From: Candidatus Latescibacterota bacterium
Lineage (GTDB): Bacteria; Latescibacterota; UBA2968; SICM01
Assembly (NCBI GenBank): GCA_965217865.1
Contig: CBDCJO010000002.1
Coordinates: 4,864,001-4,928,000, forward strand
Direction: 5' to 3'
DNA: 64,000 bases
Shown: positions 58,437 to 64,000 of the stretch, piece by piece
How positions within the stretch are numbered: the stretch's first letter is position 1
How the letters are laid out: each line of letters opens with the position of its first letter
Notes under the pieces: model-generated
What the model was told of the DNA's origin: nothing
The model's input: only the letters and a program-made list of their open reading frames with translations
The model's database searches: none
Made by a program: the position numbers and the translations under genes

Positions 58437-59054
58437 ATGAATGGGAAATTTAGCCCGATCGGGAATTTTCTCAGTTCAAAAAAAGCAATTTTTGCGATCC
58501 TGGGGATAGTGTTGCTTTTTCCCGTGCAAAACCCTCAGGCCATGAAGGTCGTGGCCTTAAGACTCCAGGAGATGGTCGGACGTGCGGATCGCATCTTCGT
58601 CGGCACCTGTCTGGACGCGAAAAGCGAGGTCGATCCAAACCGAGGGTTTGTGGTAACAACCTATACCTTCTCGGTCGTTCATCCGGTTAAAGGAGATGTT
58701 GAAAAAACCGTACTGTTTCGACAGTACGGAGGAAGGACCGCGAAACGAAGATCGTTTATCGACGGCCTGCCGGTCTACCGACCGGGTCAGGAAGTCGTGC
58801 TCTTCCTGAAACCGGTGAGCGAATGGGGTCTCACGAGCCCTGTGGGCGTATTTCAGGGATGTTTCGGAGTTACCAGATCCAGGGCGGGGAGGCGTTTTGT
58901 GGTCAACAGCCCTTATTCCCGTCACCTTTCCGGCCAGGCATTGTTTCGAACAGCGCACGCCTTTTCCAAGCCCGCCCGACTGTCGCCCGAGGGTCGCATG
59001 GATCTTGAGGATTTCATCGAATTGATCGTGGGTATGGTAGAGGATGGTGAATAA
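58437..59054 (+). CDS. Exported hypothetical protein (matrixin-associated propeptide-like)
   Basis: Signal peptide; L.EMV.RADRIFVG, V..PVKG, GG, P.Y.PGQEVVLFL, VG..QG.F. Confidence 0.72.
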   Translation: MNGKFSPIGNFLSSKKAIFAILGIVLLFPVQNPQAMKVVALRLQEMVGRADRIFVGTCLDAKSEVDPNRGFVVTTYTFSVVHPVKGDVEKTVLFRQYGGRTAKRRSFIDGLPVYRPGQEVVLFLKPVSEWGLTSPVGVFQGCFGVTRSRAGRRFVVNSPYSRHLSGQALFRTAHAFSKPARLSPEGRMDLEDFIELIVGMVEDGE

Positions 59055-60771
59055 GCGAAGAAACCATGGGACTACCATCAGGGAATCAAATCGAAAGCCA
59101 GATCGTTGTTGTTTCGGATTTCGGTTTCTTTGCAACGGATTCTTGATCTTAGTCCTGATCATCCTGTTGTCCTCGCCCGTCTCGGCCTACACCTTCCTGG
59201 TTGTGGACGAGACCGACGACGGGCCTGCCGCCTATCGATGGGACCCTAAAGAAAAAGTGGAATATCTGGTGGACGCGGGGAATCTGAGCCCGTCTATCAA
59301 TAACGCCGACGGGGTGAACCTTATCCAGAGCGCCTTCGATCGATGGGAAAATGGGACATGGAACGGCCGGAAGGTCATGGATCTGGATATAAGCTACGCT
59401 GGATTAACAAACATTGAAATTACGAGGAATAATTTTGAACTGTTCGAGGGGCAATCGGTCATCATCTTTGACAGAGATGGCTCGATCATCGATGCCCTGC
59501 TGGGAGGTGGAAGCTTTGTACTCGGTTTCGCGGAGGTGACAAACGTTGACGACGGGGAGGGAACTATTACGGCCGCCCGCGCTTTCTTTAACGGCACGAC
59601 CGCGGACAGGGCGGATCTGGGGGACTTCGAAGCGACCGTCGTCCACGAGTTGGGGCACTTCCTGGGTTTGGGGCACACCTATGTCGCCCAGGAGTTATTG
59701 AACGGGAACCCTTCTGATGACGGGCCGATACCGACGATGTATCCGACGAGCCTGGACGACGATACACACATGCGGACGCCTGAGTTGGATGACCTCGCGG
59801 GCATGGGCGATCTTTACGGATCGACGGAATTCCGGATGGAACTGGGTATTCTCGCGGGGAATGCCTCCTGGCCAGAGGATCTGCCGGTGCTTGGTGGGCA
59901 CGTCGAGGCGAGAAACCTGTCCGAAACCGGGATCCGGATCGGCGTTATTACGGGCTATCTGCAGGATGGGACCGGAAGTTATCGTATGGTGGGCTTACCG
60001 CCCGGGGATTACAAGGTGACGCTCGAGGCGATCCCGTTTAGTTTCGAAGGCGCATCCGTCATCGGACAGTATGATCCGCCGCTCCGGGATCTATTTCCGA
60101 CCTTGACTCATAAAACGCCGTCGGATACCTCGGACTTTACGACGGTCACCGTGTCAGCGGACAAGGTTTCGACCGTAGATTTTGTCATTCCCGAAGAGAA
60201 CTCAGGCTTCACGGTCGATCGGTTCTCAAGACTCAGTCCGATCTCTCTTGACGACGATGAGGTCACGACAGACACCCTGATGGTACCAAGGGAGATAATG
60301 ATCTCAGACTTTAAGGTCTTTTTAGACATCGTACACACGTACATCGGGGATCTCAAGATCAGTCTCACATCCCCTTCAGGGCGGACGGTTCTCCTGGTCT
60401 CGCAAGTGGGATTTTCCGGCAACCTGATCGAGACGACGTTTACACGGGAGAAGGTGCCGGCACTTTCGGGGTTTATAGATGAAGGCGCTGAGGGGACGTG
60501 GACCCTGGCCGTTGCGGACACGGCGCCTGAGGATGTGGGCACGCTTCGAAGGTGGTGGATCACGATCCTGAGCGAGGGGGCGACGACGCTCCAATCGGAC
60601 TTTAATTCGGACGGAGAGGTGGACCTGGATGATTTCTTCCTGTTTGCTGCGGTCTTCGGAACGGAGACGGGGGAGGCGGGGTTCGATCCGAAGTTCGACC
60701 TGAGCGTTAACGGAAAAATCGACTTCGACGACTTTTTTATGTTTGCGGCGAATTTTGGAAAAAAGGTTTAA
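59044..60771 (+). CDS. Matrixin-like metalloprotease with P-domain and C-terminal EF-hand/dockerin-like pair
   Basis: HELGHFLGLGH, Met-turn PTMYP, HTYIGDLKISLTSPSG, DFNSDGEVDLDDFF and DLSVNGKIDFDDFF. Confidence 0.88.
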   Translation: MVNKRRNHGTTIRESNRKPDRCCFGFRFLCNGFLILVLIILLSSPVSAYTFLVVDETDDGPAAYRWDPKEKVEYLVDAGNLSPSINNADGVNLIQSAFDRWENGTWNGRKVMDLDISYAGLTNIEITRNNFELFEGQSVIIFDRDGSIIDALLGGGSFVLGFAEVTNVDDGEGTITAARAFFNGTTADRADLGDFEATVVHELGHFLGLGHTYVAQELLNGNPSDDGPIPTMYPTSLDDDTHMRTPELDDLAGMGDLYGSTEFRMELGILAGNASWPEDLPVLGGHVEARNLSETGIRIGVITGYLQDGTGSYRMVGLPPGDYKVTLEAIPFSFEGASVIGQYDPPLRDLFPTLTHKTPSDTSDFTTVTVSADKVSTVDFVIPEENSGFTVDRFSRLSPISLDDDEVTTDTLMVPREIMISDFKVFLDIVHTYIGDLKISLTSPSGRTVLLVSQVGFSGNLIETTFTREKVPALSGFIDEGAEGTWTLAVADTAPEDVGTLRRWWITILSEGATTLQSDFNSDGEVDLDDFFLFAAVFGTETGEAGFDPKFDLSVNGKIDFDDFFMFAANFGKKV

Positions 60772-60902
60772 TGTGTATTTCTTGAGAAGTGAAACATATA
60801 TATTCGACTGGGGATAAAACTTGACTTCGTTATGTCAAAGGCCTACTTTCTTAGAACTCTATACAGGCTAAAAGCCTTTCATATTTAGGATTGAACAAAG
60901 AG

Positions 60903-61052
60903 ATGACCGATTACACTACATTCTATCACGAGACGAGGCCGATGGCCGGTCTGACCAGGGGCGTATGCCTGCTTATGGATTGGACCGCGGACCAGGCTAA
61001 TTCAACTATCGTTACTGTCCACGATAGGAAACGACGGTGGGTGGGTCACTAG
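60903..61052 (+). CDS. Putative 49-aa leader peptide
   Basis: MTDYTTFYHETRPMAGLTRGVCLLMDWTADQANSTIVTVHDRKRRWVGH; downstream of TTGACT-N17-TACTTT (60821-60849); overlaps the antiterminator strand. Confidence 0.5.
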   Translation: MTDYTTFYHETRPMAGLTRGVCLLMDWTADQANSTIVTVHDRKRRWVGH

Positions 61053-61076
61053 GATAACCTGAAAATCCAGTAATCG

Positions 61077-61113
61077 AACCCGCCGTCGAGTCAGATTCGA
61101 CGGCGGGTTTTTT
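61077..61113 (+). terminator. Strong intrinsic terminator (attenuator) immediately before the GNAT start
   Basis: 13-bp perfect stem AACCCGCCGTCGA/TCGACGGCGGGTT with a T6 tract. Confidence 0.85.
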
Positions 61114-61114
61114 A

Positions 61115-61693
61115 ATGGTGGATATATTGAAACGACACGACATCACACTTCAGTGCGAGTTAACCGTCTTACGCCCAATGTCGGAGGGTGATTGGGAACG
61201 CCTTCTGCGTTGGAATAACGATCCCGAGGTGCTATATTTCGCCGAAGGTGATGAGGTCATTGATCGAAGCGCGGATGAAGTCAGAAAGTTGTATCGTTCG
61301 GTGTGCAGGAATGCCTTCTGCTTTATGATTGTGTATAAAGGCGTACCGATCGGCGAGTGCTGGCTGCAGAAGATGAACCTGGAGAGAATCCTTAAGGCTC
61401 ATCCCGGTATGGACTGCAGGCGGATCGACCTGATGATCGGTGAAAAGGATTTTTGGGGACAAGGTATCGGAACTCAGGCAATCGAACTGCTCACCAGTTT
61501 CGGATTTGAAGAGGAAGGGGCAGACGTGATCTTCGGCTGTGACGTTGCGGACTACAATCCAAGAAGCATCAAGGCGTTTCAAAGGGTGGGGTTTGAAGTC
61601 TGTAATGAAGTCAGGCAAACTCAAGGGAGCAAGGCCGAGTCGTGTTATGACCTGATCCTGACACGTGAAAAATATATGCAGAAAGGGATTTGA
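61115..61693 (+). CDS. GNAT N-acetyltransferase (RimJ/AAC(6')-like)
   Basis: LRPM..D, W.NDPEV, IDLMIGEKDFWGQGIGT, N.RSIKAFQRVGF. Confidence 0.9.
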   Translation: MVDILKRHDITLQCELTVLRPMSEGDWERLLRWNNDPEVLYFAEGDEVIDRSADEVRKLYRSVCRNAFCFMIVYKGVPIGECWLQKMNLERILKAHPGMDCRRIDLMIGEKDFWGQGIGTQAIELLTSFGFEEEGADVIFGCDVADYNPRSIKAFQRVGFEVCNEVRQTQGSKAESCYDLILTREKYMQKGI

Positions 61694-61763: not shown

Positions 61764-62771
61764 ATGGAAAAATCAAAAAAGAAGGTCCATTGGGGCATTC
61801 TCGGTACCGCGAACATCGCAAAAAAAGTTGGGCGGGCGATCCACCGGGCAAAAGGGACTGAATTGACCGCCATCGCCAGCCGTGACGAGGTCCGCGCCCG
61901 GAACTGGGCGGCCGACCACGATGTGGATCGTGCATACGGGAGCTACGACGCCCTCCTGGACGATGCGGAAATAGATGCTGTTTACATCCCCCTGCCGCCG
62001 TCCATGCACCTGGAATGGACGGCCAAAGCGGCTGAAAGGGGCAAACACGTCCTCTGTGAAAAGCCCCTGGCGGCGAATGCCGAAGAGGCGCTTGCCATGG
62101 CCGAGGTCTGCAAAAAGAACGATGTGCAGTTGATGGACGGTGTCATGTGGATGCATCACGAACGCGCAGAGATGATGAAGAAGGCCGTCGTCGACGGCGC
62201 GCTGGGGGAGCTGCGACGTGTGACCTCGGCTTTCTCCTTTAACTGGGGGGAGCTTCCTGTTGACAACATCAGGATGAAACGAGAGCTCGCGGGCGGGTGT
62301 CTCGGTGACCTGGGTTATTATTGCCTGCGCGCCATCCTCTGGACTTTTGGCGACCTACCAACCAGCGTTTACGCCACCGCCCGTTTTTTAAACGATGTGG
62401 AATTCAATCTGTCGGGAGTTCTCTGGTTTCGAGACAAACGGATGGCATCCTTCGACAGCGCCTTCGATACGACGAGCAGGCAATGGTTCGAGGTCGCAGG
62501 GGATGCGGGTTCTCTTGTGTGCGACGATTTCGTGGTTCCCAAAAGCGAAAAGAAGGCGAGGTTCTGGATTCACGGAAAAGGTGACGAAGATGGGAAACGA
62601 GAGGTCAAAGGCTGTGTCCAGGAGGTGCGGATGATCGAAAAATTCTCTCGCATCGTGCAAACCGGACAGCTCGAAGAGAGATGGCCGAGGATGGCGATCG
62701 AAACCATGCAGGTGTACGATGCGCTGCTTAAATCGGCAGGTGAGGAAAAAAGGGTGGAGATGGGGGGGTAG
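61764..62771 (+). CDS. Gfo/Idh/MocA family oxidoreductase
   Basis: WGILGTANIA, VYIPLP, HVLCEKP, GGCLGDLGYY. Confidence 0.92.
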   Translation: MEKSKKKVHWGILGTANIAKKVGRAIHRAKGTELTAIASRDEVRARNWAADHDVDRAYGSYDALLDDAEIDAVYIPLPPSMHLEWTAKAAERGKHVLCEKPLAANAEEALAMAEVCKKNDVQLMDGVMWMHHERAEMMKKAVVDGALGELRRVTSAFSFNWGELPVDNIRMKRELAGGCLGDLGYYCLRAILWTFGDLPTSVYATARFLNDVEFNLSGVLWFRDKRMASFDSAFDTTSRQWFEVAGDAGSLVCDDFVVPKSEKKARFWIHGKGDEDGKREVKGCVQEVRMIEKFSRIVQTGQLEERWPRMAIETMQVYDALLKSAGEEKRVEMGG

Positions 62772-62875: not shown

Positions 62876-63646
62876 ATGTATCTGTTTACCGACACAGACC
62901 TTGCCACTCAGCGGCTGAAATACCTCGCTGAAGTTTATGAAAAATCCACGCGTGAATTTGTTGTCGATGTGATCAAGCATCATCCCCAGTTGCTTTTGGA
63001 CCTTGGGTGTGGTCCGGGATTTACCACGCATCTTTTGGCGGAATTGACTCGATGCGATCGGGCTGTGGGGATTGATAATTCAGAACATTTCATCAAGTTG
63101 GCGGAACAAACCCGGACGGACCGGGTTGATTTCTGTCTTCACGACGTCACGTCCGTCCCATTTCCAATGACCCCGTGTGACGTTCTCTTTTGCCGGTATC
63201 TCCTGACCCATTTGAAGAATCCTCTGGACCTAATCGAAAAGTGGAGCACCCAGTTGGGCCCTACAGGGCTCCTGGTGATAGAAGAGGTGGATTGGATTCA
63301 TTCGGAGAATGAGATATATATCAGCTATCTCAATATCGTAGAAGCGATGCTCGCGGATCAATCTAGCTCGCTTTATGTAGGGCCGGTGATTAACGGACTG
63401 GAAGGCACGGATCTTCTGAAGAAACAATCCAGCCGAGTCGGGAGCCTGGCCGTTTCGAACCGTCAAGCGGCCAATTTATTCCATCTGAATATCCAATCCT
63501 GGAGGCATCAGTCTTTCATAAGGACTCACTATCGGATGGAGATGATCGATGGACTGGAAAGAGACTTGAAAATCCTGGCCGAAGATTCAGGCCAGGTGAG
63601 CGAAATTGAATGGGGCTTGAGGCAACTCGTGTTTGAACGAATATGA
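62876..63646 (+). CDS. Class I SAM-dependent methyltransferase
   Basis: LDLGCGPG, GIDNS, R..L.HL, L.P.G.L. Confidence 0.88.
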   Translation: MYLFTDTDLATQRLKYLAEVYEKSTREFVVDVIKHHPQLLLDLGCGPGFTTHLLAELTRCDRAVGIDNSEHFIKLAEQTRTDRVDFCLHDVTSVPFPMTPCDVLFCRYLLTHLKNPLDLIEKWSTQLGPTGLLVIEEVDWIHSENEIYISYLNIVEAMLADQSSSLYVGPVINGLEGTDLLKKQSSRVGSLAVSNRQAANLFHLNIQSWRHQSFIRTHYRMEMIDGLERDLKILAEDSGQVSEIEWGLRQLVFERI

Positions 63647-63659
63647 TTGAAGTTTCATT

Positions 63660-64000
63660 ATGTTAAATATGAAGAACTCGCTGACACAATTTTACGATCG
63701 ACTTGCCGAGGACTACCATCTCATTTATCAGGACTGGGATCAGGCCATTCATCGACAAGCCCGGGCGCTGGACAACATCATTCAGGATCGTTTCAATGCA
63801 TCAAAAAGATCGTTATCCGTTCTAGACTGTTCCTGCGGCATCGGGACGCAGTCGATCGGTTTGGCTCTGCTCGGGTACAGGGTTCGCGGGACAGACTTGA
63901 GCACAAAAGCCGTTGAACGTGCGAGGAAGGAAGCGAACCGGTTGGGGGCTGTCCTTACTTTTGATGCGGCTGAAATTTGTGAGCTTGAGGACCGTATCGA
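63660..64000 (+). CDS. Class I SAM-dependent methyltransferase (runs off the window; absent from the ORF track)
   Basis: Manual translation: FYDRLAEDYHLIYQDW..VLDCSCGIGTQSIGLALLGYRVRGTDLS. Confidence 0.85.
   Translation, partial: MLNMKNSLTQFYDRLAEDYHLIYQDWDQAIHRQARALDNIIQDRFNASKRSLSVLDCSCGIGTQSIGLALLGYRVRGTDLSTKAVERARKEANRLGAVLTFDAAEICELEDRI

Follow-up and report, generated by a model that had tools for sequence, protein, structure and literature searches.

A predicted translation-slowing attenuator ahead of a GNAT acetyltransferase row in Latescibacterota, and its kinship with a class-wide leader family

The pheST and thr leaders are classical amino-acid attenuators, and the leaders of the ilv, his and trp type belong with them. 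These last systems are described elsewhere (PMC1183508, PMC11550727). In the Actinomycetota, the leader of whiB7/wblC carries a uORF of mixed composition, the efficient translation of which leads to the terminator whereas its slowing leads to the antiterminator, and both drugs and amino-acid shortage are described as acting through it (PMC10274678, PMC11550727). In the Firmicutes, bmrB-bmrCD, vmlR, ermK and rli53-lmo0919 are described as antibiotic-responsive transcription attenuators with demonstrated inducers (PMC5418344).

In this study, we describe a leader from a Candidatus Latescibacterota bacterium, found in a stretch of 64,000 nucleotides (the window). The window leader shares the 1:2 / 2:3 / 3:4 layout of the classical amino-acid attenuators but, unlike them, has neither a significant run of cognate codons nor a matching biosynthetic or synthetase gene downstream. 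Like the whiB7/wblC leader, it has a long uORF of mixed composition and an antiterminator which, by equilibrium folding of truncated transcripts, is available wherever the ribosome lags upstream. However, whiB7/wblC controls a transcription factor, whereas the window leader sits directly on a row of enzyme genes and has homologues among the amino-acid-specific leaders that its genome contains, with no sequence relation to whiB7/wblC seen. With bmrB-bmrCD, vmlR, ermK and rli53-lmo0919 it has in common a ribosome-coupled antitermination, predicted here, before exporters or candidate resistance enzymes, although the one arrest motif that can be recognised in it stands on the unfavourable side of the switch. 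The mechanism of attenuation is already known; the leader family and its apparent reuse from amino-acid to stress control were not found described in the open-licence literature.

Architecture and predicted switching of the leader

The elements of the leader are the following (positions in the window).

60821..60849, + strand: sigma70-type promoter TTGACT-N17-TACTTT (TTGACT 60821-60826, 17 nt, TACTTT 60844-60849), called by homology with related leaders
60903..61052, + strand: leader ORF of 49 codons with the C-terminal end DRKRRWVGH, its translation predicted, its frame and stop position common to the family
61005..61019, + strand: codons T35-I-V-T-V39, the last stall positions leaving the antiterminator strand unmasked in the ribosome-position model
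61032..61042, + strand: antiterminator strand (segment 2) CGACGGTGGGT, the R-R-W-V codons, from folding and covariation
61077..61113, + strand: intrinsic terminator with a 13-bp core stem, a 3-nt loop and T6 (-26.2 kcal/mol; covariation)
61102..61107, + strand: GGCGGG, the best candidate ribosome-binding site of the GNAT, in the terminator 3' arm (anti-SD duplex -6.0 kcal/mol)

The promoter, the 49-codon uORF, the 13-bp terminator with T6 and the 10/11 copy of its arm had been named in an original prediction made on this DNA, and all of them are found at the positions it gave. The -10 box TACTTT matches three of the six consensus bases, and promoter and terminator are both absent from a stock scanner's output for the window; the promoter call follows from homology, a TTGAC-type site being present in 17 of the 29 leaders checked, at -211 in the window leader versus -208 in the two closest exporter leaders. 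Transcription would start near 60856. The upstream gene (59044-60771) encodes a matrixin-like metalloprotease, predicted to be secreted, which carries a proprotein-convertase P domain and, at its C terminus, a calcium-binding-like repeat; from this gene to the leader promoter no terminator was seen.

The terminator stem (61079-61107) comprises 13 bp, or 15 bp counting two A-U pairs with the T tract; the T6 stretch (61108-61113) is followed by a single A and then by the GNAT ATG at 61115. The strand at 61032-61042 is identical to the terminator 3' arm in 10 of 11 bases. When both conformers were folded, as the original prediction had proposed, the 2:3 antiterminator duplex came to -23.0 kcal/mol and the terminator to -26.2 kcal/mol, the two being mutually exclusive. 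The 11-bp upstream pairing to the terminator 5' arm was equalled in 9 of 2000 block shuffles; genome-wide, it is reached by 4 of 112 terminator-like hairpins, three of which are members of the leader family described below. The leader as a whole (271 nt) folds with z = -3.4, and no promoter-like site was detected after its hairpin. The locus has, in sum, a terminator between promoter and first gene, a mutually exclusive and covarying antiterminator, and a uORF overlapping strand 2, and we regard the window leader, with high confidence, as a real attenuator.

The effect of ribosome position was modelled by equilibrium folding of transcripts ending just past the terminator 5' arm, with an assumed footprint of 30 nt. 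The antiterminator has a probability of ~0.93 without a ribosome or for every A-site codon tested up to 39, of 0.69 with the A site at codon 40, and of <=0.02 from codon 41 onward. Codons T35-V39 also take part in a weak 1:2 pairing (-12.6 kcal/mol), and neither the strength of the 1:2 pairing nor the naked-RNA default distinguishes leader subtypes. On the full-length transcript at equilibrium the terminator is favoured in every ribosome case, so that, according to the model, the switch must be kinetic, through co-transcriptional folding, as in known attenuators. A ribosome keeping pace beyond codon 40 would cover 61032-61042 and the terminator would form; with a ribosome lagging at or before V39, 61032-61042 would pair first with 61078-61088 and transcription would continue. 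The logic of the original prediction, in which a ribosome on the R-R-W strand favours termination and an upstream delay favours read-through, agrees with this model. The terminator form would also bury the likely ribosome-binding site of the GNAT, the unpaired probability of GGCGGG being 0.00 in that form and 0.32 in the antiterminator form, a feature that would add a layer of control at translation.

A leader family across the class

A search for the same architecture in relatives, likewise proposed at the outset, recovered a class-wide family of mostly amino-acid attenuators, and kinship with it is the point that the original prediction lacked. A DNA search of 41 genomes matched the 3' part of the leader at 76% identity in one relative (G001), ahead of an ABC-2 exporter and on a different contig from the GNAT orthologue of that genome. 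A pattern made of the strand plus the terminator gave 9 matches in 7 of 132 class genomes, none in controls, and 9 metagenome loci, several of them duplicates; a pattern of promoter plus strand, with a gap too short for the window leader itself, gave one known member and one chance match. Across 19 aligned members, 98.4% of cells are paired in the antiterminator helix and 96.5% in the terminator helix, with 5 and 16 cells, respectively, changed on both sides; the both-side counts of either helix were equalled in 0 of 500 shuffles. Because the members were gathered with a pattern containing both helices, the pairing percentages are inflated, and the compensatory changes are the better evidence. 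The covariance model built from those members has matches at E <=0.01 in 114 of the 132 class genomes, weak ones among which may be plain terminators, and 8 at the same threshold in the window's own genome, two of these being reverse-strand or hairpin-only. At gathering threshold, Rfam 15 gave nothing in the window and, over 14 family loci, no leader match and one unrelated lysine riboswitch; below threshold, Trp_leader scored 20 bits (cut-off 41) and an sRNA model 30.5 bits (cut-off 58). No description of the family was found in the open-licence literature.

Fifty-five model matches were examined, with downstream genes named by family scans for a subset and by N-terminus likeness for the others: 42 stand ahead of a synthetase or amino-acid biosynthetic gene, 3 ahead of the ABC-2 exporter and 5 ahead of a GNAT or methyltransferase, and 5 are without assignment. 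The genes controlled include ilvB, asd, hisG and those of IleRS, ValRS, AspRS, MetRS, LysRS and LeuRS, and the leader codons fit them. Within 12 control codons, all three IleRS leaders have 7 Ile, the AspRS leaders (n=12) have 4-9 Asn/Asp and the ilv leaders (n=11) have 4-11 Ile/Leu/Val, while Met-, His- and Leu-rich leaders precede MetRS, hisG and a LeuRS-like gene, respectively. In 26 of 39 leaders the uORF stop lies exactly 6 codons past the beginning of the strand; over all 39 the distance is 4-10 codons. Since neither the stop position nor the cognate codons were features of the search query, they indicate that the family leaders are read by ribosomes and constitute a classical attenuator family.

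Several members deserve mention in their own right. Tandem double attenuators precede non-discriminating AspRS and ilvB in several genomes (L127, G000:C2:4543447-4543779; L090; L171:15707-16041). At L128 (G000:C2:4570527-4570635, - strand), a family leader with Q-F-Q-Q-Q-Q stands before a divergent MetRS-like protein that falls below both NCBIfam MetRS cut-offs, another MetRS having a Met-rich leader; this paralogue may serve another amino acid or role. An Asn-rich leader in G042 (L092 / L172:8750-8847) is followed by a transposase-like ORF, and a weak member with its own promoter-like site (L130:1657-1750; G000:C2:4582656-4582749) is not immediately followed by any clear gene on its strand, an IS-like ORF beginning ~900 bases beyond.

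The exporter leaders bear on the origin of the window leader. Among 168 genomes, six orthologues of the exporter were found, each immediately preceded by a family leader, one of these leaders having an in-frame stop; exporter-type leaders carry 3-5 Ile/Leu/Val and 6-8 hydrophobic codons of 12, which could mean that they sense Ile, Val, Leu or Met. The 150 nt before the strand of the window leader align best with two ilvB and two exporter leaders (equalled in 0, 0, 0 and 1 of 200 shuffles), and a five-way alignment of the window, ilv and exporter leaders spans the region from the -35 box to the T tract. All gaps inside the leader ORF are multiples of 3. In the control region, the window leader and both exporter leaders are longer by up to 39 bases than the two aligned ilv leaders, and the in-frame insertion that they have in common dilutes the Val/Leu run: only 3 of the 12 control codons in the window leader are Ile/Leu/Val (chance P = 0.49), or 5 of 12 including two Thr (P = 0.22), whereas the Ile/Leu/Val counts of the five ilv leaders nearest to it are 7, 9, 7, 11 and 7. 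The homology with the exporter leaders is clearest at the DNA level, a BLASTP comparison of the window leader peptide with that of the G001 exporter giving no alignment. An ilv leader would have gained about 10-13 control-region codons, lost its Val/Leu run, and been reused before an ABC-2 exporter in relatives and before the GNAT row here; we infer the direction, from ilv to exporter and GNAT, solely from the distribution of the leaders.

A second ABC-2 exporter has a different leader peptide, R-D-T-I-P ... K-L-P-W ... G-R-P, which is kept in G000, G001 and G002 and runs into a terminator (L008:1501-1536, G000:C2:4556899-4556934, - strand; L229; L232). XPW is described as an erythromycin arrest motif (PMC8298421), and as a sequence-specific drug sensor this leader is a stronger candidate than that of the window.

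The GNAT and its row

The genes behind the leader within the window are the following.

61115..61693, + strand: GNAT acetyltransferase of 192 aa with an AAC(6')-Ie/Im-like fold, from sequence and fold match
61764..62771, + strand: Gfo/Idh/MocA oxidoreductase, second in the row; neither a consensus promoter nor a terminator was found in the gap after the GNAT
62876..63646, + strand: class I SAM methyltransferase
63660..64000, + strand: class I SAM methyltransferase, continuing past the window end

Beyond the window, the row goes on with a third methyltransferase, a transglutaminase-like protein, a HAD hydrolase, a GH113 protein, a formyltransferase and an O-methyltransferase. Nine co-directional genes thus follow the GNAT, and for ~8.5 kb neither a consensus promoter nor a strong terminator was seen; we infer from this layout that the row is co-transcribed. 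An integron cassette array was considered and rejected, there being no attC-like site in the window row and no integrase over cut-off in G000.

The nearest solved relatives of the GNAT are AAC(6')-Ie and -Im (PDB 4qc6, 6bff; E 4e-16, TM about 0.78), with 24-27% identity in the structural alignment, and its best AAC(6') NCBIfam score is 59.8 bits for a cut-off of 450. The equivalent of Asp99 is D105, conserved in 58 of 60 GNAT relatives, and the Asp136 position aligns with D143, which is poorly conserved. Tyr34 and Trp54, described as the ring-stacking residues of AAC(6') (PMC5722643), align with A43 and C64, both stacking aromatics being absent; specific to this GNAT family are an invariant R103 and a W83-L-Q-x-M-N motif. 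The GNAT likely acetylates an amine, and aminoglycosides are a possible substrate. The idea of a RimL/MccE-like detoxifier of synthetase inhibitors found no support, neither protein being among the top sequence and fold matches listed. A possible hint at the substrate comes from several Firmicutes-type orthologues in which the GNAT is joined to a longer C-terminal part (320-630 aa) (L042, L048-L050, L054, L058, L061-L063, L070, L076, L079).

Five contigs from four runs span the junction of leader and GNAT, strains of about 4-10% divergence being among them, and both helices are apparently intact in these strains, among the rows listed. Two related strains have Ile at codon 35 (I-I-V-T-V), and one related contig has a 1-base deletion at 61127, early in the GNAT. 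In run X14, positions 60794-60928 of the window, with the promoter and the 5' segment of the leader, are replaced by 134 unrelated-looking bases, both flanks aligning. Elsewhere, the orthologues of the GNAT have unrelated neighbour genes. Against the proposed role, the pairing of leader and GNAT is not a conserved one: at 98 orthologue loci, some of them the same DNA twice, no model match exceeded 22.3 bits within 1.5-3 kb, and upstream of 80 orthologues there was no T-box motif, a terminator-like hairpin being found in 4 of the 80, none resembling the window leader.

A comparable arrangement is found in G041, where two near-identical family leaders without a codon run each head a long row of GNATs and methyltransferases. 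One row includes an AAC(3)-family enzyme together with orthologues of the window GNAT (65%), the transglutaminase-like protein (52%) and the GH113 protein (50%); its leader lies 4 kb upstream of the GNAT orthologue and differs in sequence from that of the window. The placing of this GNAT in an attenuator-headed row appears, from these sequences, to have arisen independently in the G041 relative. Each of the two rows (L171, L193, L191) consists of more than 20 co-directional small enzymes with the near-identical attenuator at its head; the distal part of one has attC-like repeats, with no integron integrase over cut-off in G041. In G042 (L192), a methyltransferase and a GNAT lie between a His-rich leader and hisG, with MetRS further downstream, and in G058/G059 a Val-type leader stands ahead of a methyltransferase; these His- and Val-type cases, which tell against an adaptive reading, show that genes of this sort can come to lie behind an attenuator whose signal is not adapted to them.

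Possible inputs and the meaning of the family

The loss of a run of codons for a single amino acid makes it likely that the leader senses slowing in general, on behalf of a row of modifying enzymes. The best explanation in our judgement, to which we give a probability of about 0.5, is a general sensor of translation slowing, similar to whiB7 and bmrB, derived from a branched-chain amino-acid attenuator and opening the GNAT row. Ribosome-targeting drugs, synthetase inhibitors or shortage of any of several amino acids could cause the lag, and read-through would probably extend across up to ten co-directional modifying enzymes. As regards the translation-stress input originally proposed, its general form is the one judged likeliest, whereas the macrolide motif and Trp/Arg limitation did not hold up as inducers. 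The +X+ motif R42-K43-R44 does occur in the leader (PMC8298421), and one exporter leader ends R-R-K-R-R-W; but macrolide arrest at a motif of this kind is described as holding the second basic codon in the A site (PMC8298421), which here is R44 or R45, past the permissive limit, and by the folding model an arrest there would mask 61032-61042 and lead to termination. A stall for want of Trp or Arg at R-R-W would abolish the antiterminator in the same way. The leader ORF has no +X+ motif before codon 42, and R-R-W/R-R-D codons also occur in Ile-, Val-, Asn/Asp- and Lys-type members, from which it follows that these codons are dictated by the RNA strand; sensing of macrolides, Trp or Arg at this site is thus highly improbable. 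Nearly as hard to sustain is a stand-alone small RNA or small-protein gene, with separate or leaky transcription of the GNAT. It is true that the promoter, the ORF and the strong terminator make a complete unit, which also has the weak sRNA match in Rfam, yet the antiterminator covaries, no promoter-like site was found after the hairpin, and members stand directly 5' of same-strand genes whose product fits the leader codons.

Two further readings accept the attenuator and differ on what it serves. The window leader might still be a classical attenuator sensing Ile, Val or Thr through the T-I-V-T-V codons, in which case the GNAT row and the exporter would answer to branched-chain shortage or to its mimics, such as synthetase inhibitors and toxic analogues. 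Its descent from ilv leaders speaks for this, as do the placing of T35-V39 at exactly the last permissive positions, the I-I-V-T-V of two related strains and the 3-5 Ile/Leu/Val of 12 kept by exporter leaders; however, the counts in the window leader are not above chance, with or without Thr, the residues vary between leaders, and ilvB of the same genome is without such a leader, and we consider specific sensing of this kind a real possibility that the balance of evidence disfavours. It could also be that the attenuator works while its tie to the GNAT is incidental, an earlier target, probably the ABC-2 exporter, having been lost or displaced and the row of small enzymes having come behind a ready-made promoter and leader. 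Consistent with this, one query found no close exporter orthologue in the window's genome (best 42% identity), the GNAT begins right by the T tract and lacks a ribosome-binding site of its own, its orthologues have unrelated neighbours, and accessory genes stand behind His- and Val-type leaders elsewhere. Against it, strains of as much as about 10% divergence retain the junction, its helices apparently intact among the rows listed, and G041 has the same gene types behind two family leaders; an incidental tie appears unlikely.

Amino-acid and antibiotic-responsive attenuators are usually studied apart, and here alignable homologues of both apparent kinds are found in one lineage, which makes the change of input testable through the exchange of some dozen codons. 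The leaders also serve as labels: in uncultured bacteria they single out the GNAT family, the ABC-2 exporter and the enzyme rows as candidate parts of a defence against translation stress, and their codons suggest the amino acid sensed for synthetase paralogues. We put forward, tentatively and as something less likely than the general sensor itself, that a single attenuator chassis has spread through the class and been retuned only by rewriting of the leader codons, its Ile, Val, Asn/Asp, Lys, Met, His and Leu versions governing synthetases and biosynthesis, and its run-less versions being general ribosome-stress switches on an exporter and on long rows of acetyl- and methyltransferases. If this were true, such rows would amount to an inducible regulon for detoxification that needs no transcription factor, and the passage from sensing starvation to sensing antibiotics would be preserved in the family.
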